A DNA stretch of 63,784 nucleotides, filler included, from Chrysochromulina tobinii (taxonomy: Eukaryota): NCBI GenBank assembly GCA_001275005.1. It is 6 parts of 6 records of this genome, joined end to end, with 100 filler letters (N's around TTAATTAATTAA, not from the genome) between each part and the next. Parts side by side here need not be neighbours in the genome. Positions count along the whole stretch, not along the records: positions 1 to 17,150 come from JWZX01000106.1; 5 more parts are not named here. The stretch is one strand, 5' to 3'. The notes beneath the pieces are model-generated. The model saw only the letters and a list, made by a program, of their open reading frames with translations, did not search any database and had not been told where the DNA came from. Position numbers and translations under genes: made by a program. The first letter of the stretch is position 1. The number at the start of each line of letters is the position of its first letter. Shown here piece by piece: positions 3,628-62,494 of this stretch.

Positions 3628-6116
3628 ATGGAGTTTATCTCATCTTCCATGGTCTACTTGCCGCTCCACACACTGCTGCTCGAGGACGAGCTGCCTGTTA
3701 CCGCGGCGCCACGGCCCGAGATCCGACGATGCCGCGGCTGCCAGGCTGTGCTGCTCGTTGCCGACTACATTGGTCGTGGCGCCGGCGCAATGGATAAGGC
3801 CCTCGCGTACCATTCTTGTGGCACCTGCGCCAGCGACGAGGCCTTCGCTGCCTCGATGGTGGCCGAGTTCAAGAGCATGCTGGGATCTGGCGGCGACGAG
3901 GGCGAGCCCGACTCTGCTGCGTGCGCGCTGCCCGTCACGTGGCCCGACGGCGAGCCTCCGCTCGTGTACCTGGCGCGGGTGGGCAAGGTCGAGTGCGCCC
4001 TGAATCTGCTGCGTTCGGGCCTGGCCGCGTCCTGCGGAGGCGTGAACGCGCGCGGTCGCTTCGGCATGACCGCGCTGCACCACGCGGCCGCACGCAACGA
4101 CACGACGCTTCTTCGGACGCTCGTCGCTGAGGGAGCCTCCACCTGGCTCACCACTCAGGACGATGTCAACGCAGGCGTGACTGGCGGGCGCACACCCCTC
4201 CACGCGGCGGCGGCGGCCGGCGCGGCAGCCTCGGCGGCGTTGCTCGTGGAGCTCGATCCGATGAGCGCCGCGCGCACCGATTGGGAAGATCGGCTGCCTG
4301 CCGAGCTCGCGTGGCTCGGCGAGATCGAGGGAGCTCACGAGCTCGCAATCTCGCTCGTCGAGGCAGCGAGGCAAGCCTCTGCTGCTGACCCTCCAGCTGC
4401 GAGCGGGGAGATCGAAGGAGATCGAACGATCTTGAGCTCGATCGAGGTCGAGGTGCACGTCGACGCGATCGAGGAGACGGAGCTCAATGAGCTTGATGGC
4501 GAGCGGCAGCACGCGCGTACTCTGAGCAAAGTCGAGCTACGCGAGCGCCACCGCGCCGCCCTTGACATCGAGGCACGCCCGAGGTTGCACACAGCTCATC
4601 TGATCAAGGGCGCTTGGACTGCTGACCGGTGCGGCGCCTCTGATTGCCACTGCTCGCCACTGATGGTCTCCGATGGCGACCGATTCGAGCGTGCAGGTGC
4701 AGCCACTGATTGCAACTGATTGCCACTGATTGCCACCGATTGCCACCGATTGCCACTGATGGTCTCCGATGGCGACCGATTTGAGCGTGCAGGTGCAGCC
4801 ACTGATTGCCACTGATTGCCACTGATTGGCACTGATTGCCACTGATTGCCACTGATTGCCACTGATGGTCTCCGATGGCGACCGATTCGAGCGTGCAGGT
4901 GCAGCCACTGATTGCCACTGATTGCCACTGATTGCCACTGATTGGCACTGATTGGCACTGATAGGCACTGATTGCCACTGATGGTCTCTGATGGCGACCG
5001 ATTCGAGCGTGCAGGTGCAGCGCGCTGCTCGAGGCGGTGCGCACAGCGGCGGCTCAGTACGGCTGGTCTACTGGGCGACATAAGTACCATGCGACCATGG
5101 ACATGCCAATATGGCGCCTTACACCGCACAGCGCCGCGTGTGTGCGGACGGCTCTGGAGGACGAGGTACTGCCCGCGATGGCGCGCGTCTTTGGCATCGC
5201 TCGCGAGCGGTTGGCGCTGCGCGAGGGCTTCGTGGCCATGTATGGTACTGGAGGATGCATGCAGCGCGCGTTGGGCATGCACAAGGATGGTACGCTGCTT
5301 GCGTGCACGCTGCTGCTCAATCCGGAATCGGACTTTGATGGAGGTGGCACCACGTACGCCGCGCCTGTGCGGCTGCGCGAGTGGAGCGAGGCGGACTGGA
5401 AGGCCTCGTCGGAGTGGAAGGCGGACTTGAGCGCGCCCGTGGGAGCCATAAAACCATCGGATGACGACGGCGGCGGCGGACAGAAGACGCTGGAGGAAGC
5501 CTTGGTGCACACGGTGCCGGCCGCGATGGGCGACTTGCTCCTTCATTGTGGGCAGCTGCGCCACGGGGCCGCAGAGGTCAGTCGAGGCTACCGGTATGTG
5601 CTGGTCGCCTTCGTCGACGAGCTGCAGCTCTCTCCCGAGCGCCGTGACGAGCGCCGTGACGAGCGCCAGGGCGAGGAGGTGCAGGGCGAGGGGGCAACGG
5701 GTAAGGTGGGGCCAAATGGCTCTCCCGGCCCCATCTCGACGCCACAGCCCCCATCGGCTGCTGGCGCTGTGCCGCCACTCATGGCCCGTTCCGTCTCACT
5801 GGACGGCGGCACACCCAAGGCCACTAGCGCGCGCTCGGTGCCACGGCTGGCGAAGGCGACGTCGTTTGTGACACCCACGTCCGTAGGGGCTGCCCCCGGG
5901 GGTGAGCGCTCACCACGGCGCTCGTGTGTCTCCTTCCACGTGAGCGAGATCAGCGGGAGCTCAGTACCGGAGCGCCGTGGCAAGTTCACACTGCCGGGCG
6001 GCAAGGCGGCCTTCACACCTGGTTGGGATGAGCAGCCGAAAATTGAGGACGACGAGGCTGAGCTCAGGGCCGAGATCAACGCGGATCAAAAGAAGAAGCT
6101 CAGCTTTGGTTCGTGA
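3628..6116 (+). CDS. Ankyrin-repeat plus 2OG-Fe(II) dioxygenase (prolyl/lysyl hydroxylase-like) protein
   Basis: Ankyrin motifs GMTALHHAA and GRTPLHAAA. Removing intron 4629-5014 gives WTADR|CSALLEAVR. Oxygenase motifs HKD...DFDGGGT...RHG...RYVLVAF. Confidence 0.8.
4629..5014 (+). repeat. Compound intron of four tandem GT...AG units filled with CCACTGATTG decamers
   Basis: Units 4629-4696, 4697-4792, 4793-4898 and 4899-5014 each end GAGCGTGCAG and are followed by GTGCAG. Confidence 0.85.
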
Positions 6117-17250: not shown

Positions 17251-17937
17251 CGGCGGCAGCGACGGCGGCAGCAACGGCGGCAGCGATGGCGGCGACGATG
17301 GCGGCAGCGACGGCGGCAGCGACGGCGGCGGCGCCGGCGGCTGCGACGGCGGCAGCGAGGGCGGCAGCGAGGGCGGCAGCGAGGGCGGCAGCGAGGGCGG
17401 CAGCGACGGCGGCAGCGAGGGCGGCAGCGAGGGCGGCAGCGAGGGCGGCAGCGAGGGCGGCAGCGAGGGCGGCAGCGAGGGCGGCAGCGACGGCGGCGGC
17501 GACGGCGGCGGCGACGGCGGCAGCGATGGCGGCAGCGATGGCGGCGTCGATGGCGGTGACGAGGGCGCGGGCGAGGGCGGCTGCGGCGGCGGCAGCGAGG
17601 GCGGCAGCGAGGGCGGCAGCGAGGGCGGCAGCGACGGCGGAGGCAACCTTGGGCTTTTTCGATCCGGCGGCGGCGACGGCGGCGGCGAAATACGAGGACT
17701 GCAGTCAATGCAGTCGGTGCCGCGATGGCACCACGTAAACTCCGCTCCGGGTCCGCCGTCGTCGCACTCGCCGTCTGAGGTAAATGCGCACGTCTCCGTG
17801 CACTCCACGAAAGGCGGCGGCGGAGAAGGAGGCGGCGGAGACGGCGGCGGCTGCTCCGGCGGCGGAGCTTGCCCCAACGTGCCGCTCAGCTGAACGATCG
17901 CGACCAGCGCAAACAGTACGCGATTCAGCGCCCACAT
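17251..17937 (-). CDS. Secreted Pro/Ser-rich (PPSL)n protein with a Cys-rich CDDGG module; 3'-partial
   Basis: Signal peptide MWALNRVLFALVAIVQLSGTLG, module CTETCAFTSDGECDDGGPGAEFTWCHRGTDCIDC, then 12-nt repeats encoding PPSL. Confidence 0.8.
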
Positions 17938-18387: not shown

Positions 18388-19140
18388 TTGAGCCCTGGGC
18401 GCCACGACAACTCGACAGGAAACTCGACAGCTACTCGACAGCTACTCCTACTGCTCGACAGGATTTAGCCTTTTTTAGCCTTGGATTTAGCTCAACAGCT
18501 ACTCGACAGACCTCGACAGACCTCGAGCACAGAACCCCCCCTGATCCAACCCTAAATCCAACCCCCCCCTGACATCTCCATGTGGAGCCGGGGCGAGTTC
18601 AACCCGGAGTTCAACTAGCTGTCAAGCTCGACAACTACTCGACAGCTCGACAGTGACCTCGACTCGTCCTCGACAGACCTGTGCTCGACACGAAACTCGA
18701 CAGCTCGACAGCTACTCGACGCGCCGGCACATGGAGATGTCAGCCTGTCGACAGGCTCGACAGGAACTCGAGACTCGACAGGAACTCGACAGGTACTCGA
18801 CAGGAACTCGACAGGCTCGACAAGGCTCCATACCAGTTGATCCTCGATCCACTTGGCACCCGCGTGTCCACATCCATGTTCCATTCAAGTACCTCAACTC
18901 GAAGCTCGCTGTCGACAGGCCGTATACTAGTATGATCTGGAACATGGATGGACATGGAACATGTGGACACGCGGGTGCCAAGTGGATCGAGGATCAACTG
19001 GTATGGAGCCTTGTCGACGCGCCGGCACATGGAGATGTCAGCCTCGACAGGCTCGACAGGAACTCGACAGGAACTCGACAGGAACTCGACAGGCTCGAGT
19101 AGCTGTCGAGCTGTCGAGTTTCGTCTTTCGTGTCGACACA
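18388..19140 (+). mobile_element. TCGAC-rich non-autonomous foldback/MITE-like repeat
   Basis: Dense CTCGACAG arrays and a perfect 57-bp inverted repeat (18817-18873 / 18961-19017). The terminus tgagccctgg...acaactcgacaggaaactcgacagctactcgacag is shared with the copy at 30455-30670. Confidence 0.7.
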
Positions 19141-30454: not shown

Positions 30455-30670
30455 GTGTCGAGGTCTGTCGAGGTCTGTCGAGGTCTGTCGAGCTGTCGAG
30501 CTGTCGAGCTTGACACTTGACGCCGCCGTCGCATGGAGTCAGGGGTAAGTCAGGGGGGTTCTGTCGAGGTCTGTCGAGGTCTGTCGAGGTCTGTCGAGTA
30601 GCTGTCAAGCTACATGTAGCCTGTCGAGTAGCTGTCGAGTTTCCTGTCGAGTTGTCGAGGCCAGGGCTCA
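30455..30670 (-). mobile_element. Second, shorter copy of the TCGAC-rich repeat family, inverted
   Basis: The reverse complement begins tgagccctggcctcgacaactcgacaggaaactcgacagctactcgacag and contains cagaacccccctga, matching 18388-18545. Confidence 0.75.
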
Positions 30671-33180: not shown

Positions 33181-35529
33181 GTGAGCGATGAGGAGACGGA
33201 GCGGCCGCATCTGACGCTCATCGACTTTGGGTACGCGGCGTTGCTCGGCGAGGCAGCAGATGGCGGTGGCGGGCCCATGGAGCTGACGGGCGTCGCCGGC
33301 TCGCCCGAGTACGCGGCGCCCGAGGTGCTCTCGTGGATTGAGGCGGAGGCGGACGCGACGGGCGAGGTGGAGGGCGAGCCATACGACGCAGGTTGCGACG
33401 TGTGGAGCGTGGGCGTGACGGCGCACGTGCTGCTGTGCGCCGCGATGCCCTTTGAGCTGCCCGAAGAGGCGACCGAGGCAGCGCTCGTCGCCGCCGCGCG
33501 CAACGTCGACCTCTCCTTCCACAGCCGTCCGGAACTCGAAGGCGACGCAATGGCGCCCACGCGCGACTTCGTGCGCGCTTGCATGACGGTCGCACGCAGG
33601 GAGCGCCCCTCGGCGGAGCAGCTGCTCGGCCATCCGTGGATCCTCGGGTCAAATCTCGGGACAAATCTCGGCCATCCGTGGATCCTCGGGTCAAATCTCG
33701 GGACAAATCTCGGCCATCCGTGGATCCTCGGGTCAAATCTCGGGACAAATCTCGGCCATCCGTGGATCCTCGGCCCACCGATGGCGCTCAACACGGCGCG
33801 TCAGGAGGAGCGCCCCTCGGCGTCCGTGCGCCCAACACGGCGCGAGCGCCTCGCGGCGGAGGAGGGCGTGTCGACGGGGGGCGCCATGCCTGAGGACGAC
33901 CTCGTGTTCCGTCGCCAGAGGGAGGATGACGAACGCCATCATCGGGAGGATGACGAACGCCATCAGGAGGACGAGCTCGAGTTCCGTCGCCAGGCGACCA
34001 TGCAGCGCCAGAGGGAGGATGAAGAACGTCATCAGCAGGAGGATGAAGAACGTCATCAGGAGGAGGAGGCCGCCAAACGGCTGCACGATGCTGAGGAGCT
34101 TGAGGCGCGGCGCCATCGTGAGGCGTTGACCGGTACCTACTCTGGCACCTTCTCTGACGCTGGGGCGACGTTGCCTAATTTGGACCAACGCAAGTATGGC
34201 ATCACCATCGCAGTCGGCACAGCCTCGCCGACGCGCGTGCACATCAACGCGGTCACGCCCAACACGGCGCCAACCAGCTGCCTCCTTCCCGACGCGAAGC
34301 CGCTGCCCAAGGTGGCTCGCGCCGCTCAGGACGGCGCCATGCAGGCCGTCAACCAACACGAACTCGCGGCGCACCTCGCCGCTGCAGTCAAATCCGCAGC
34401 TCTGACGTACTTCGTGCATGCTCACAGCCAGCGTACCAGTACTTCCCTTCAAGTGCTCGTCGGCCAGGTGCGAGCTCTGATGACCTCTGATGACCTCGCT
34501 GATGACCGCTGATGACCTCGTCGGCCAGGTGCGAGCTCTGATGACCTCGCCGATGACCCCGCTGATGACCTCGCTGATGACCGCTGATGACCTCGCTGAT
34601 GACCCCGCTGATGACCTCGCTGATGAGCCCGCTGTTGGCCGTGGATCGCCTCTGACCATCTCCAACGCCAACGCTCGCCTGCCAGGCACTGCTCGTGCGG
34701 CCGTTGCCACTGATGACCTGCCTTGCATGCGAGTGCTCACCACAGCGCCATCTCCCCACAGGCACTGCTCGTGCGGCCGTTGCAGACGCCTCCTCTTCCC
34801 ACAGAGCTCTCGAGTGCCAAGCTGACGCCTTCCCAGGCGGCCAGCTTGAAGCGCGACCTCAGCATCCTCTCGGCGAGGCTCACGAGGATCGTCAATGCGA
34901 CAAGGCGCGGTGGGTCAACTTGGCTCGTGAGGGAGGTAGGACAGGCTCTGATAGTCGCCGAGGAGCAGCCACTCCCCGACTGGTGGCACGCGTCCGGATC
35001 ACAGCGTTTGGGTGTGGTCCGGACGCAATCTCCCGCCACCGAGATCGCAATCTCCCCCGCGGCCGCAATCTCGCCCTCAGCTCCCTCATCTCCGAAGGGA
35101 GATCCGGTCACACCGCCACCCCTGCACTTCACACCACCACCCCTGCACTCGCAGCCGTCGCTCGGGTTACCGCCGCCAGCGACGAACGTGCCGAAACCGA
35201 TGAACGCGTCGGTGCGCCCGCCCTACGGCTTCGTCAGCCACGCCGAATGGGCCCCAGACGTACCCTTCATCTGCCACGCCTCGGTTTCGTCACCTCCCTC
35301 GCGTGCTCCCGGGCTCCCATCGTGGTGGTCAGACGCCTCGATGGGCGTCGCAACGGTGCGACCGGCCGCGGTGTCTGCCACGCACACCGACGAGACTGCG
35401 CCTCTGGTGGCCTCACAGGTGCTGGGAGCACTTGAAGGCACGGCGGGCGGCATTCCCGCGTGGTGGGCCCGGGAGAGCGCGAGGAGTGCGACCCCCCAAT
35501 CTCAGCGAGCGCATGTATTGACGGTGTAA
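32698..35529 (+). CDS. CAMK-group Ser/Thr protein kinase with long C-terminal extension
   Basis: GEGRFSRV, ALKE, HRDVKPEN, DFG, GSPEYAAPE, DVWSVGV, HPW. Compound intron 34468-34761 joins VLVGQ|ALLVRPL. Confidence 0.88.
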
Positions 35530-39347: not shown

Positions 39348-42073
39348 ATGCCGAAGAGACCACGAACCTCTGAAGTTGTGGCTGCTCTCTCTGGCATCGA
39401 GCGCGAACGAAGCGTTGGCATCGACTCGTACGCGAGCGCGCCCCTTCCGCTCCACCCGACCGGCCTCTTCCAGTCGCGATGGATTGATTTCCACGTTCGG
39501 GAGCTGGCAGAAGATGGAGTCGCCCTTTCACTGACCGACGTGCCACAGCAGGCAGACGCGTTGGCACCCTTGGCACACAGGCATCTGTGCTCGTTCGTAA
39601 TGTGCAAAGAGAATCGGACGACCTCAGATGCCTTGAGGCAGGTAGCGGCCGCAGCTGGCGTGCCTCTCTCGAGCCTCGCCGTCGCCGGCGCCAAGGACAA
39701 GCGAGCCGTGACGGTGCAACGCGTGACTGGCCGCGGCATCGACGCGCCGAAACTGCTGCGCGTGAACGACAAGTGGACAGCCGCTGGCAGCCGGGTGCGC
39801 GTCGGGCATTTCGCGGCCGCCGATCGCTCGCTCGGCCTCGACCAAGCGCGTGGAAATCAGTTTGTGGTCATCCTGCGCGACCTCGAGGTGACGTCCACTT
39901 GCCACGAGGCGCACGCGCAGGCGCCGGCAGGTGGAGCGGCTGGCGAGGCAGACGGCGATGGAACGGCTTCCATATTTGGCAACTCCGAGGGTCTGGGCGA
40001 GGTGGCGTGGCGCCGTAGCGGGCGCGCCGTCGCGGGCGAGGGTCTGGGCGAGGAGGCACTGCGAGGCGCATGCAGTGCCGCCCTCTCGCGCGTCGCGGCG
40101 GGCGGCTTCGTCAACTACTTTGGCTTGCAGCGCTTCGGCAGCGGCGAGGGCGTGGCCACGCATGCCGTCGGTGCCCTCTTACTACGCGGGGCATTCCGTC
40201 GGGGACTCCAAGCCATACTCGACCCGACCGCGCCCGGCCTCTCGGCGGCTGAGCGGGCGGCGCGCGCTCACTACGGCGCGACCGCGGACGCGGCGGCAGC
40301 GTTGCGCCTGCTGCCGAGGCGCGGCGGCCAGACGCTCACACAGAGGCTCCTTAGCTCCTATGCCGCTCGACTGTCGGCAGCGAGCACGGCGGCTGCTGAC
40401 ACGGCAGTTGCAGGCACGGCAGTTGCAGGCACGGCGGTTGCTGACACGGCAGTTGCTGACACGGCAGTTGCTGACACGGCAGTTGCTGACACGGCGGCGG
40501 CTGGTGCTACGGTAGTCGGTGCCGCATCGGCCGCGCATGCAAGTGATCACCACGGCGCGCGGCCATCAGCGGTAGCCACATCGGCCGCGCATGCGAGTGC
40601 TCACCACGGCGCTGCATCGGCTGGCGCCCTGGAGGCGAGTGCATTGGAGGACGCGGCGGCGGAAACGACTCTTTGGCGCCTCCCTTTTCGGGAGCGCTTG
40701 CTCTACGTGAATGCGCTCCAGTCGTTCGCGTTCAATCGCGCCGCCAGCTACCGCATCCGAATGAATGCGAGCACTCCCATCGAAGGCGATCTGGTGTGGG
40801 GAATGAATGCGAGCGCTCCCATCGAAGGCGATCTGGTGTGGGGAATGAATGCGAGCGCTCCCATCGAAGGCGATCTGGTGTGGGCGGCAGCCGGCGGCGG
40901 CGGTGCCCATGACGGCGCCCATTTAGGTGCCCACGACGGCGCGATCACGGAGGACGAGGGCGCCGACGTGAGCGCCGTCGTGGGCGCCGACGCCGTTGAA
41001 GGCGCCGACGACGTCGAAGGCTCGGCAGCGGCGGACGGGTTCGAGGACGATGGCGGCGGCGCTGTCGCTTCGGTCTCCGTCGGGCCTGCCGTGCGGGCGC
41101 GCGCGCTGTTGCCGCCTGCTGTGAAAGTGCTCAGCGCGGCGGAGGCAGCTTCTGGCCGTTACACTCTTGCGGACGTGCTGCTGCCACTCCCAGGTCACTT
41201 CGCCACGTATCCCCTGAGTGCCACTGAGTGCCTTCCTCATCAGGTCACTTTTCACCACTTATCTCCCGAGTGCCACTGATTGCCTTCCGCATCAGGTCAC
41301 TCACACCTTCCCATATCCCTGATTGCCACTGATTGCCACTGATTGCCTCCCCATCAGGTCACTCCGTCACCTACCCCGCGCACGGCGCCGGCGCCGAGTA
41401 CGCTCGGGTTCTGTCCGAGCTCAATCTCCGGCTCGATCTCCGGCTCGGCGCCACGACGGCGCTCCCAGCCGCGAGCTCGGAGCTCCCAGCCGCGAGGTGG
41501 TTTCAGGCAGGCCTCTTCGACCTGCCTGGCGGGTATCGTCCATTGCTTGCCTTCGCGTCGCGCTTGAGCGGCGCCGTACTCTCTTACACCGACCCGATCG
41601 CCGTGCTTGAGCGCTCGGATTTGGATGCCCTCGAGCCCAGAGCCACTGCCACGTCGACGGCGCCGTCACGAGCACCCGAGCGCTCGGATTTGGATGCCCT
41701 CGAGCCCAGAGCCACTGCCACGTCGACGGCGCCGTCACGAGCACCCGAGCGCTTGGATTTGGATGCCCTCGAGCCCAGAGCCACTGCCACGTCGACGGCG
41801 CCGTCCCGAGCACCCGAGCGCTTGGATTTGGATGCCCTCGAGCCCAGAGCCACTGCCACGTCGACGGCGCCGTCCCGAGCACCCGATGAAGCCGACGGCG
41901 GCTCGGCACGCAAACGCTTCGCGTGGCGGGTGAGCTTTGAGTTGCCTGCGTCGGTGTATGCGACCGTGTTCTTGAGGGAGCTCCTGCATCATCCCCTCGA
42001 TGCCGCGGAGGACGCGCGCCGCTCGAAAACAGTGCTCACCGCGAAAAATAAGACTCCGTTCGGTATCGACTAG
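39348..42073 (+). CDS. PUS7: TruD-family pseudouridine synthase
   Basis: AGAKDKRAVTVQ (catalytic Asp), GNQF, GFVNYFGLQRFG, LPGGYR, FELPASVYATVFLRE. Intron 41194-41357 joins LPLPG|HSVTYP. Confidence 0.92.
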
Positions 42074-57798: not shown

Positions 57799-60700
57799 AT
57801 GGGAGGCGAGGGCCGCACGAGGAAGCTCGCCGCGGGGATGACCAAGGACGACATCCCGCGCATCATCAAGGAACTCAAGAGCGCTCCTCAGGACGGCAAG
57901 GAGAAGTCCGCGTACCTGCTCGACATCATGGCCGAGCAGGAGGAGAACGTCAAGGCGATGGTGAAGGCGGGCGCGATCGGGCCGCTCGTGGAACTCGTCG
58001 CCTCGGGCAATGACGGCGGCCAAATCCACGCCTGCTCCACTCTCGCGCAGATCGCGCTCGCGGAGACCGACTTCACGTCAGAGGGGAATCCGCGTGATGC
58101 GATCGTGCTCGCAGGGGCGATCACGCCGCTCGTGAGCGTGCTGCGCAGCGGCTCGGAGAAGGCGCAGATGCACGCCGCCGCCGCCCTCGCCTCCCTCTCT
58201 GAGGACCCAGAGAACCAGATGCCCATCATCAAGGCCGGCGCGATCGCGCCGCTCGTCCGCCTACTCCGCGTTGGGACTGACGATGCCAAGATCTCAGCGG
58301 CCGACTGCGTGGCGAACGTGTCGGCGGCGAATATGGAGGCGCAGGCGGCCGTGCATGCGGCGGGCGCCGTCCCACTCTTGCTCGAGATGCTCAAGGGAGG
58401 CAAGGCGCAGCAAGCGGCTGCCAACGCCCTCGCGAAGCTTCTCTGGCCAGGTGATGACCCCTGATGACATATCTGATGACCGCTGATGACCGCTGATGAC
58501 CGCTGATGACCCCTCGGAATATTGCATGCTCGCCCTCGCGCCTCGCTGCTCTGGCCAGGTGATGACCCCTGATGACCGCTGATGACCGCTGATGACCGCT
58601 GATGACCGCTGATGACCGCTGATGACCCCTCGAATTGCATGCTCACCCTCGCGCCTCGCTGCTCTGGCCAGGCCCGGACCTCTCTCTTGCGGCCAACGTG
58701 GCCATCCAGCTATCGATCCTGGAGCAGGGCGGCATCGCACCGCTCCTCGCTCTGCTCAACGGCGTGTCGGATAAGGCGCAGGTCTCCGCCGCCGAAGCAC
58801 TCTCCCATGATGACCTCTGATGACCGCTGATGGCCGCTGATGACAAGGCACCGGTCTCGGCTGCCGAAGCGCTTCTCTCATATGGCTGACCCGCCTGGCA
58901 TGCAAGTGCTCACTACGGCGCTTCACACACCCGATTCACAGGTCTCCGCCGCCCGAAGCGCTCTCCAATGTGGCACGGAGCAACGTGGACACCCAATCGG
59001 AGATCGCCAGGGCGGGGGGGCATCGGGCCCCTCCTCGCCATCGTCACCTCCCGCAACCCAAACGCGCAGGCACATGATGACCCCTGATGACCCCTGATGA
59101 CCCCTGATGACCCCTGATGACCCCTCGAAGGGCGGCAAGCTCACCCTATCCCGCAACCCACACGCCTAGGCCCGAGGCGCGAGCGCCCGAGTGCTCACCA
59201 CGACGCCTCGCTGCTTCCCCACAGGCCCAAGGCGCGAGCGCTCTAGCACAGCTCTCCCGATTCAACCGTGACAACCAGGACTCTGTGGCGCGTGCTGGGG
59301 GCATCAAGCTACTCGTAGAGCTGCTCGCGCCCCACCACCCTCTCGACGTCCAGGTGGGTGCCGCTGATGACTCACCTGATGACCCTTGATGAGCACTGAT
59401 GCCTCCTGACGACCCTGCACACCCCTGGATGGCCACTTTCATTGCATGCGCGGCCCTCCCGACGTGCAGGCCATGGCCGCTCTCGCTGTGGCCTCTGATG
59501 ACCTCTGATAACCTCTGATGACCTCTGATGACCTCTGATGACCTCCCTCATCAGGCCATGGCCGCTGTGACCTCTGATAACCTCTGATGACCTCTGATGA
59601 CCTCTAATGACCGCTGATGACCTCTGTTGACCTCCCTCATCAGGCCATGGCCGCTCTCGCTGTGACCGAGATCAGCCGCAACAACTTCGCCAACCAGACC
59701 GCGTGTGCCGACAACGGGGCCATCGGCTCGCTCGTGGCGCAGCTGCGCCTGAGCGGCGCGAGGGGTGCCCGAGATGCACTCTCCCGAGATGCACTCTCCC
59801 GAGATGCACTCTCCCGAGATGCAATCTCCCCGGCGGTGCCAGGCACGGAGGAAGTGAAGGCAGAGGCGGCGGGCGCGATCTGGGTCCTCTCCGAAGGGCA
59901 CGTCGAGAACAAGATCGCCATCGCCAGCGCCGGTGGCATCGCGCCGACGGTGAGCTTGCCTTGGGAGAGGCTCATGATTACGGGCGGAGCCGTCGATCGC
60001 ACCATGATTGCACCCTGATTACGCCATGATCGCGCCATGATTGCGCCACGATTACGGGCGGAGCCGTCGATCGCACCATGATTGCACCCTGATTACGCCA
60101 TGATCGCGCCATGATTGCGCCACGATTACGGGCGGAGCCGTCGATCGCACCATGATTGCACCCTGATTACGCCATGATCGCGCCATGATTGCGCCACGAT
60201 TACGGGCGGAGCCGTCGATCGCACCATGATTGCACCCTGATTACGCCATGATCGCGCCATGATTGCGCCACGATTACGGGCGGAGCCGTCGATCGCACCA
60301 TGATTGCCAGTGGACGCCCGCCGAGTTTGATATGGACGTCCCTAATTTGGCAGGTGAGCCTGCTCGAGACGGGCGGAGCCCGGGCCCAATTGCATGCAGC
60401 GAACGCGCTCGCGTCGCTGGGCTTCCAGAACATCGACAACCAGCGCCAGATGTCGATGCTGCTGGTGAGTCTCCTCGGCACTGGGGGCGTTGAGGGCGCC
60501 GTGACGGGCACCGAGGCGACAGCGAGGGCTGGACGGTCGACGGAGGCCAAGTCGAACGCCGCCGCAGCGCTCTGGCGCCTAGTGCGTGAAAACCCGAACT
60601 CGATCGAGGAGGTGCGATCTCCCTTGATGAGCACTGATTGCTTGACTGAATGGCGCCTAGTGCGTGAAAACCCGAACTCGATTGAGGAGGTGCGATCTCC

Positions 60701-62494
60701 CTTGATGAGCACTGATTGCTTGACTGAATGGCGCCTAGTGCGTGAAAACCCGAACTCGATTGAGGAGGTGTGTGTGCGCGTGGCCTCTGAGGACCTCTGA
60801 CTGACTTTTGATGACCTCTGACGACATCTGACGACATCTGACGACATCTGACGACCTCTGACCCTCTGATTGCATCCCTAATCAGGTGGCCAAGGCGGGT
60901 CCGACCTCCGATCTGATCTTCCTCCTCAAGCACGGCACGACCGAGGCGCGCGCGTACGCCCTCTGGTCGCTCTCGCTCTCAATTACGGAGAGCAATCAGA
61001 AGACGCTACTCGATGAGGACGGCGTCGAGCCGCTCGTTAAGTCGTTACACTCGCCCGTACAGGTGACGGCCACTGATGACCACTGATGACCGCTGATGAC
61101 CGCTGATGACCGCTGATGACCGCTGATGACCGCCGATGACCGATGATGACCGCTGATGACCGCTGATGACCTCTCTCATTGCATGCGCCCCACTCGCCCG
61201 TCCAGATCACGAGGCAGCAAGCGGCCGCCGCCCTCGCGAGCCTCGTCAAGAACAATGCGAAGGCGCAGATTGCAGTCGCATCCAAAGGCGGGATTGAACC
61301 TCTCATCAAGATCATCTCCGCACCGGCGCCGTCTCCTCCTGCGCTGCCACCCTCAGCGCACGAAGAAGCGGAGGCGCAGTTGCCTAATATGGGCACGCCC
61401 CCAAAACAGCTCACCCCTACCGTCGACCTCACAGTGCAGCTGGTGACCGAAGAGGATACGATGGACTCGAAGCAGTGCGCCGCCGCCGCCGCGCTCTCTG
61501 ACCTCTGCCTTGCATGCGAGTGCTCACCACGGCGCGACCTCCTCCCTTCCCACAGGTACGCCGCCGCCGCGCTCTCCGACCTCGCCCTCGTCGCCGCCAA
61601 CCGCGACGAGGTGGTCGAAAAGAACGGCATAATGCCGCTGGTCAGTTTGCTGACCGTCGCCGACAACGAGGGCAAACTCCTTGCCGACAAGGCCAAAAAG
61701 TTCGCCGCGGCGGCGCTCGCGCGACTAGCGGATGGTCATCAGCAGACTGCGGCCGACATTGCCCAGGTGCCCAACTGATTGCCTCCCTCATCCAACTGAT
61801 TGCCCGCTGGGTACAGGCGGGGGCCCTCCTCCCACTGATGACCTCTTGATTGACTCGTGATTGCCTCCCTCATTAGGCGGGCGCCATCCCCCACCTCTTG
61901 ATGACCTCTTTTGACTCGTGATTGCCTCCCTCATCAGGCGGGCGCCATCCCCCACCTCGTCGGTCTGCTCGACGGCACGTGTGGGGACCCGGCCCAGGAG
62001 GAGGCCGCTGGTGCCCTCTTCTCTCTCGCGGACGACAACTCGAACCGGCTCGCGATCACCGAGGCTGGCGGCATCGGGCCTCTCGTCGAGTTGCTCGGCA
62101 GCCGTAACTCGCGCGCTCGCAAGCATGCGGAGGTGGGACTGCTCCCCTGTCACTGATTGCATGCGGAGGTCACTGATTGCATGCGGAGGTGGGACTGCTC
62201 CCCCGTCACTGATTGCCAGTGAGCTCAGCCCTAATTTGGGCAGTGAGCTCGGCCCTAATTTGGGCAAGTCGCCCTCTCCGATGACCTCCCTGATGACCTC
62301 CCAATGACCTCCCTAATGACCTCCCTGATGACCTCCCAATGACCTCCCTAATGACCTCCCTGATGACCTCCCAATGACCTCCCTAATGACCTCCCTGATG
62401 ACCTCCCGATGACCTCCCTAATGAGTCCTTAATGGCAGGGCGCCCTCGTACGTCTCTCCCTCGAGTCCGCCAACCGCGCTCTCATCATCAAGAA
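57799..62494 (+). CDS. Armadillo-repeat (Vac8-like) protein with about 11 introns; 3'-partial
   Basis: Repeated AGAIxPLVxLL...AAxALxxL. Hand-placed introns: 58451-58671, 58782-58941, 59070-59224, 59354-59643, 59756-59842, 59950-60353, 60612-60885, 61063-61205, 61475-61555, 61767-61937, 62133-62438. Two homopolymer +1 errors (about 58953 and 59017) are needed to keep frame. Confidence 0.85.
59976..60307 (+). repeat. Intronic 74-bp minisatellite, about 4.5 copies
   Basis: Unit gattacgggcggagccgtcgatcgcaccatgattgcaccctgattacgccatgatcgcgccatgattgcgccac. Confidence 0.9.

Follow-up and report, generated by a model that had tools for sequence, protein, structure and literature searches.

A stack of four adjoining intron units in a Chrysochromulina tobinii gene, probably built by duplication across the acceptor

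A 386-nt intron in an ankyrin-repeat gene of the freshwater haptophyte alga Chrysochromulina tobinii consists of four adjoining GT-AG units, and these units are very probably duplications across the acceptor, each copying the acceptor end and the 6-7 bases with which exon 2 opens. The intron lies in the window, by which we mean the whole 63,784-nt stretch of DNA that was analysed. The stack is real, recursive splicing of its units is plausible on the reading of the sequence, and the stack pattern, which recurs in the window and is apparently polymorphic, is of more interest than a single stack would be and is possibly a genome-wide habit.

The host gene is classed here as of the ankyrin and Fe2OG-dioxygenase type, the dioxygenase part by the name that a source gives. 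The coding part of exon 1 matches Pfam Ank_2 (E=3.6e-17) and is colinear with proteins P0001-P0004, and its positions 4289-4627 are covered by a contig of RNA run X2. A Pfam search gave no match for exon 2, the product of which clusters with C. tobinii KOO53703.1, named at its source as an Fe2OG dioxygenase domain protein. No insertion separates the exon-1 part from the exon-2 part in four homologues (685-860 aa), and three related loci (L003, L005 and L009), which are distant (27-42% identity in the best segment), have no intron at the stack position. KOO53703.1 is identical to the window translation at all 501 residues, made up of a 183-aa prefix and a 318-aa suffix; the public model joins 4176 to 5160, skipping 4177-5159 and losing about 200 residues that the homologues keep, and the exon sequence found in the X2 contig (4289-4627 and 5014-5655) speaks against it. 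Across 4177-5159 this model is likely a mis-annotation; it appears mis-spliced across the stack region, which is of importance for annotation.

Division of the intron at CAG/GT, where the slash marks a splice boundary, gives units at 4629-4696, 4697-4792, 4793-4898 and 4899-5014 (Table 1), and bears out an earlier, preliminary description of four adjoining units of 68, 96, 106 and 116 nt, all of which begin with GT, finish with TGCAG and adjoin as CAG/GTGCAG. Every splice element is intact in the DNA of all stacked units, which adjoin with none interrupted, and each internal acceptor directly abuts a donor dinucleotide (CAG/GT at 4696/7, 4792/3 and 4898/9), which is the arrangement of a zero-length exon. 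A 32-nt 3' tail is common to the four units; units 2 and 4 each carry a single substitution in it. A 20-nt probe from the tail has four matches in the 64-kb window, all within the stack, and none in 100 shuffles. Before the tail of each acceptor stands a branch-like CTGAT, its A at -34, and a pyrimidine tract is absent. The branch-point consensus is YTRAY, and by comparison with it CTGAT would be the branch point. As sets of motifs (GT, CTGAT with A at -34, CAG) the units deserve the earlier name of complete introns, whereas the excision of a single unit was not observed.

Table 1. Positions of the host-gene exons, the stack and its parts, and the other stacked introns, counted along the window
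Feature	Position	Strand	Description	Support
Exon 1, coding part	3628-4628	+	ATG at 3628; ankyrin repeats; ends in phase 2 (CG/)	
Whole intron	4629-5014	+	386 nt, GT-AG	X2 RNA contig; homologues without insertion
Unit 1	4629-4696	+	68 nt; outer donor CCG/GTGCGG; first 9 nt match exon 2 start at 8/9	
Unit 2	4697-4792	+	96 nt; exon-start copy GTGCAG(C), 5 decamers, common tail	
Unit 3	4793-4898	+	106 nt; exon-start copy, 6 decamers, common tail	
Unit 4	4899-5014	+	116 nt; exon-start copy, 7 decamers, tail to the acceptor of the mature RNA	
Acceptor tail	4665-4696, 4761-4792, 4867-4898, 4983-5014	+	32 nt	
Exon 2, coding part	5015-6116	+	begins GTGCAGC	
TruD pseudouridine synthase intron	41194-41357	+	3 units (50/52/62 nt), each starting with exon-start copy GTCACT	
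ARM-repeat gene, intron 1	58451-58671	+	2 units (108/113 nt)	
ARM-repeat gene, intron 3	59070-59224	+	2 units (100/55 nt); unit 2 begins with a 19/22 exon-start copy	
ARM-repeat gene, intron 4	59354-59643	+	3 units (116/85/89 nt); exon-start copies 23/24 and 12/12; GC donors	
ARM-repeat gene, intron 9	61767-61937	+	3 units (50/60/61 nt); exon-start copies 13/16 and 21/21	

In a parse by tens, unit 1 resolves into GTGCGGCG and six decamers. Units 2-4 each open with GTGCAG and continue through a run of CCACTGATTG-type decamers to a single CCACTGATGG, with three decamers of tail at the end; the parse confirms the reported runs of five, six and seven decamers in units 2-4. Growth by one decamer per unit, which had also been claimed, holds for the steps between units 2-4 (+10 each) but not for that from unit 1 to unit 2 (+28). 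Similarly, the claim that only the last AG leads into the continuing reading frame is correct among the four unit-end AGs (5014, giving 700 aa) but not beyond them, as the AG at 5020 is also in frame (698 aa), and yet the RNA join described below leaves out 386 nt rather than 392. If the outer donor is joined to 4697, 4793 or 4899, a stop follows after 337 aa in each case, and products retaining upstream units are likewise out of frame.

The repeated piece is read as acceptor end plus exon start because matches run on both sides of the internal AGs. Downstream, GTGCAGC at 4697, 4793 and 4899 equals the start of exon 2 (5015-5021) at 7/7 positions; upstream, the match to the true acceptor end extends over 52/57, 82/91 and 161/197 nt. 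The duplicated AG/GT thus has matching sequence on either side, as in a tandem duplication, and the internal donors exist because exon 2 itself begins with GT. Successive duplication, proposed earlier, is supported, although the piece that was copied is the acceptor end with the exon start and not a free-standing intron. One private decamer variant is doubled in unit 2 and another is tripled in unit 4, pointing to slippage inside units; with slippage acting once the units had been duplicated, the 5-6-7 ladder is not necessarily a record of their order, and the +10 steps are likely the product of decamer slippage. The suggestion that the size ladder preserves the order of duplication was considered and set aside as unproven, given these locally repeated private decamers in units 2 and 4.

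In the mechanism that we propose, the intron would have grown by repeated tandem duplication of the 3' splice site with the first 6-7 bases of exon 2. The first copy may have arisen where the exon start overlaps the decamer array by the 2 nt GC, an overlap between exon copy and array that would suit a microhomology-guided first duplication; extra units could have been added by unequal exchange and decamer numbers altered by slippage, and each copy would leave an AG/GT, so that unit-by-unit splicing would become possible for at least part of the transcripts. Exon-matching nucleotides amount to only 6-9 per unit, the remainder being decamer array and tail, and the stack is therefore not a strict de novo gain, in which a whole intron derives from duplicated exon sequence; the decamer filler is most of each unit and its origin is unaccounted for by junction duplication. 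An Rfam search of 4400-5200 returned no match at E up to 1, and hence no known RNA family is hosted in the stack, while the stack folds no better than its shuffles (z 0.58), which leaves a structure hiding the internal sites unsupported. With no RNA family and no unusual fold an adaptive role is without support, and the stack is likely tolerated rather than adaptive. Open reading frames over the stack on the minus strand and in alternative frames were absent from the protein collection (4/4), and a search of viral contigs for the decamer pattern gave no matches.

Contigs from four of 19 listed sequencing runs were compared, and yielded seven joints from three RNA runs at low or contig-level depth. 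In the poly(A) run X2 a 981-nt contig joins 4628 to 5015, skipping 386 nt with GT..AG ends. This contig differs from the window at 11 letters of its 981 nt and X2 therefore represents another strain, the intron of which may be unstacked; the protein is unchanged after splicing, as seen in the X2 join from that other strain and in the colinear homologues. An exon-1 end followed by GTGCAGCC would mark an intermediate and one followed by GTGCAGCG the mature RNA. Partial skips of 68, 164 or 270 nt were not found among the seven joints of the three RNA runs, the contigs of which drop rare forms. In runs X1 and X3, which have exon contigs identical in sequence to the window, no spliced join is listed at the focal intron, only unspliced pieces, which does not prove that splicing is absent; the neighbouring helicase intron (2741-2862) is spliced in all three RNA runs. 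In run X15 the contigs 4440-4701 and 4990-5611 share their terminal 30 nt, as might be expected of an allele in which a single short unit precedes exon 2; being a matter of contig geometry, this carries no weight in the argument.

The donor consensus is CAG/GTAAGT. The outer donor and the internal sites each have five matches plus a wobble to this consensus, and the donor that would be rebuilt on loss of unit 1, CCG/GTGCAG, has four plus a wobble; it is identical to the mature exon junction and is without the -2 A and the +5 G. Excision of units 2-4 through the CAG/GTGCAG donors would restore the junction each time and leave unit 1 as an ordinary 68-nt intron. Were unit 1 removed first, re-splicing from the weaker CCG/GTGCAG would be required, as in a 5'-to-3' ratchet, and products that failed to re-splice would carry an early stop and would be degraded. 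Since the four acceptors are nearly identical in context, the choice between them is probably stochastic, and the local sequence, in which the tail, the CTGAT at -34 and the next 7 nt are all equal, hardly accounts for a strict bias towards the last. The reading that we favour, at about even confidence, is a mixed and partly stepwise removal of the units. As the units carry private variants, the acceptor and donor used by each molecule would be readable by amplicon and lariat sequencing.

The units might share this duplication origin and still be removed in one step from 4629 to 5014, with the internal AG/GT sites inert and the downstream exon favouring the last acceptor; we consider this possible, if doubtful. 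The full 386-nt join is the sole join seen here, the +5 G occurs in the outer donor only and the rebuilt donor is weak, decamer arrays rather than an exon lie downstream of the internal acceptors, and the first internal site is absent at its place in 11/13 informative relatives. Little, however, distinguishes the internal acceptors from the last one, to which they are identical for 10-25 nt upstream and 7 nt downstream; the +5 G is present in only 6/13 of the donors examined, and the RNA-confirmed helicase donor works without it. Moreover, the partial products all stop early, so that mature RNA cannot reveal the splicing route and the sole join is what either route would leave. It is unlikely that the four-unit allele is instead a mildly damaging expansion, poorly spliced, with much of its RNA keeping the intron or stopping early. 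Unspliced contigs of X1 do run over the donor and the first internal junction at a depth of about 4 (against 6-8 for the exons), as does one of X3 over the second junction, with a spliced join in neither run, and among relatives the 5' end of the window type is in the minority. Nevertheless, contigs prove presence and not absence, their depth is low and DNA is possible in RNA libraries; stacks also occupy conserved genes, among them the TruD gene, in which Q-V-T, at the internal junction, is kept in all 12 close matches that reach it, and the ARM gene, which carries four stacks in one otherwise colinear frame.

That the assembly over-expanded a shorter intron is scarcely credible: the region is rich in repeats, N gaps and probable single-base errors occur in other parts of the window, and no single record among the run contigs spans the whole stack, but private variants in every unit make an artefact unlikely, two metagenome assemblies (L001 and L002), which may be from the window's own source strain, are identical to it over 6645 nt, RNA-run contigs cross two of the internal junctions unspliced (1/2 in X1 and 2/3 in X3), and protein P0176, which has four differences in exon 1, also reads from unit 1 into unit 2. 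Only slightly less improbable is that an Introner-like mobile element inserted several times over at a single target, with GTGCAG(C) duplicated each time. The start of the intron does equal the exon start at 8/9 positions, resembling a target-site duplication, decamer motifs are common to many loci, and Gozashti et al. 2022 (10.1101/2022.06.06.494994) list a Chrysochromulina sp. MAG among the hosts of Introners with 4-bp target-site duplications; the words 'recursive', 'nested' and 'tandem' are absent from the main text of that report, the supplements of which may bear on stacks. Introners and introns with direct repeats at their borders, as described in the available text of PMC11782384, share with the stack the repetition of flanking exon sequence at the intron ends. 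Terminal inverted repeats are a further mark of Introners, though some families lack them. Against such an origin, the tail is confined to the stack, with no dispersed unit copies in the 64-kb window, tails are locus-specific across the window's stacks, and their exon copies range from 6 to 24 nt, widely variable where a target-site duplication would be of fixed length; in addition, the family as so far reported brings its 5' site and borrows the 3' site, and the focal intron has no unusual RNA structure (z 0.58).

Variation between strains was traced through translated gene calls rather than DNA, in which the collapse of repeats in short reads could mimic fewer units; many of the proteins in the collection look like gene calls made on unspliced sequence, with the translation running on into the intron. 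At TruD the junction is reached by 12 of the 15 closest matches, all with Q-V-T at the first internal site, and among 14 further cluster members two (P0151 and P0155) pass through two units and then into exon 2, compared with three units in P0150 and in the window. Since P0151 and P0155 agree with the window's TruD protein at 184/185 core residues, the TruD unit number appears, from these translations, to differ (2 vs 3) between near-identical strains. In the 95-97% group of TruD relatives, unit 2 begins with a longer, undecayed exon-start copy. For the focal gene 16 of 70 cluster members were examined, of which 13 are informative and three stop too early. Two of the informative proteins, namely that of the window itself and P0176 (with 329/333 in exon 1), read unit 1 into unit 2 at the +68 junction, nine relatives continue in decamers at the position of the window's first tail, and two more diverged relatives are likewise without the first tail. 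With the first AG/GT in only 2/13, the 68-nt first unit is the minority state; the later focal units are invisible in the proteins of relatives because read-through stops early.

The focal stack is less singular than it first seemed: 6/13 introns examined in the window are stacks. The set comprises the ten introns of the ARM-repeat gene with the focal, helicase and TruD introns, and the last three were chosen as already noticed, so that 6/13 is a biased rate; RNA supports the focal and helicase introns, and the others are placed by homology. Once its ten introns are taken out, the ARM-repeat gene model (57838-62494) aligns with homologues over the junctions, two +1 shifts in exon 3 excepted. 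Its stacks have 2-3 units each with internal YAG/GY, as has the TruD intron, and all 17 units of the six stacks are at least 50 nt long; a scan of the window found no intronic junction-spanning copy below 50 nt. When the start of each of the 13 introns was scored against its own downstream exon start, the sum was 71, against a null mean of 27 and maximum of 46 in 10,000 re-pairings, and the corresponding comparison of intron ends with upstream exon ends gave 50 against a null of 33 and a maximum of 42. Downstream exons start with GT/GC in 11/13 cases (window frequency 0.17) and upstream exons end with AG in 10/13 (0.058), and with so many exons starting GT/GC a test of whether acceptor duplications are tolerated only before such exons is powerless. 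Across the window there are 30 AG/GY pairs against a shuffle mean of 1.7, a count that includes coding repeats and so is not a rate. A search for stacks in 53 kb of GC-rich related loci, L001/L002 not counted, came up empty, a result of little weight since it depends on how many introns those loci contain.

In its working the stack resembles a dual-site expansion, and it is a candidate member of the recursive-splicing class, whose mode of action it may share. In the available text of Duan et al. 2024 (PMC10809524), tandem dual-specific splice sites in human UBC are described under a 'DSS expansion model': those arrays similarly consist of AG/GT-bounded tandem units, serving as donor or acceptor, whereby splicing buffers repeat expansion, but they are of coding monomers kept in variable number, whereas here the units do not code, each partial product runs into a stop and the dual use is putative. 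Spliceosome profiling (10.1101/226894) reports, in its available text, two cases of zero-length exons, one of them in a 336-nt S. pombe intron; there too an internal acceptor is followed by a donor in a short intron of a unicellular eukaryote, but that site is conserved and its use was demonstrated by profiling, in contrast to three candidate sites in one intron, derived from junction duplication, the first of them polymorphic. Lipomyces stwintrons (PMC7138796) are, as the available text has it, likewise complex short introns of U2 units removed consecutively and sometimes in one step; in them the inner intron interrupts a splice element of the outer, whereas the stack units adjoin. As regards origin, Hellsten et al. 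2011 (PMC3265369) state in the text available that a duplicated AGGT segment makes a spliceable intron with an efficiency of about 6-16%. In this form of gain (see also the review PMC3443670) the AG/GT duplication, as here, pairs splice sites and leaves the protein unchanged, but an exonic segment is copied once to make one intron, whereas in the stack an existing acceptor with 6-7 exon bases was copied three times, the units are mostly decamers and many introns are concerned. The accessible main text of the C. tobin genome paper (PMC4580454) has the word 'intron' once. Titles and the starts of abstracts gave no description of stacked introns in haptophytes, most subscription papers being outside this coverage. 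The Emiliania genome paper reportedly touches on introns rich in repeats and on GC donors.

Natural cases of intron gain by tandem duplication are few, although such gain has been demonstrated in vivo, and only isolated examples are known of recursive splicing in short introns. Here the stack geometry occurs in 4/10 consecutive introns of one gene, and copy number seems to vary between strains. A wider proposal, which we offer tentatively and think somewhat improbable as it stands, is that Chrysochromulina routinely both makes and enlarges introns by local duplication of AG/GY junctions filled with branch-point microsatellites, that a large share of the short introns are stacks removed piecewise and that unit number segregates in the wild. 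If true, short introns would commonly be spliced recursively in this genome, and intron birth by duplication could be watched in progress there. The stacks would offer a natural test of the piecewise removal of short introns, and raise the general and testable question of what a short-intron spliceosome does when it faces several near-identical acceptors in a row.

Several minor observations were made on other parts of the window. In the six stacks the 3' unit is the longer in 9/11 adjacent pairs (one-sided sign test 0.03, post hoc and with non-independent pairs). Duplications spanning a donor, of exon end with intron start, occur as 78-nt and about 20-nt units in ARM introns 6 and 10 (60571-60770 and 62133-62200), and ARM exon 3 (58942-59069) has two non-cancelling +1 frameshifts, at a C run and a G run, that are probably sequencing errors. 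In the single introns 34686-34761 (a candidate intron), 58782-58941 and 61475-61555 the first 12-22 nt equal the downstream exon start; such exon-start copies would be expected if these introns were born by local duplication. A GCATGCGAGTGCTCACCAC-like motif lies near the 3' end of several unrelated introns (34725-34745, 58900-58920, 59190-59205 and 61515-61530) and is a possible shared branch element or Introner remnant. At 34468-34640, in a CTGATGAC-rich stretch, an AG/GT is duplicated 61 nt apart with 20 nt identical after it and 12 before. The RNA-confirmed helicase intron (2741-2862) contains 12-nt CTGATTGCGACC-type repeats, and over the contig that covers it run X15 departs from the window by 15 letters and by 32 gap positions, from which it follows that introns change quickly from strain to strain. 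Between genes, at 18400-19120 and 30456-30653, arrays of CTCGACAG/CTGTCGAG-type 8-11-nt repeats stand on opposite strands, and a GC-rich stretch at 17252-17640 holds 32 copies of a 12-nt repeat with 90% matches.
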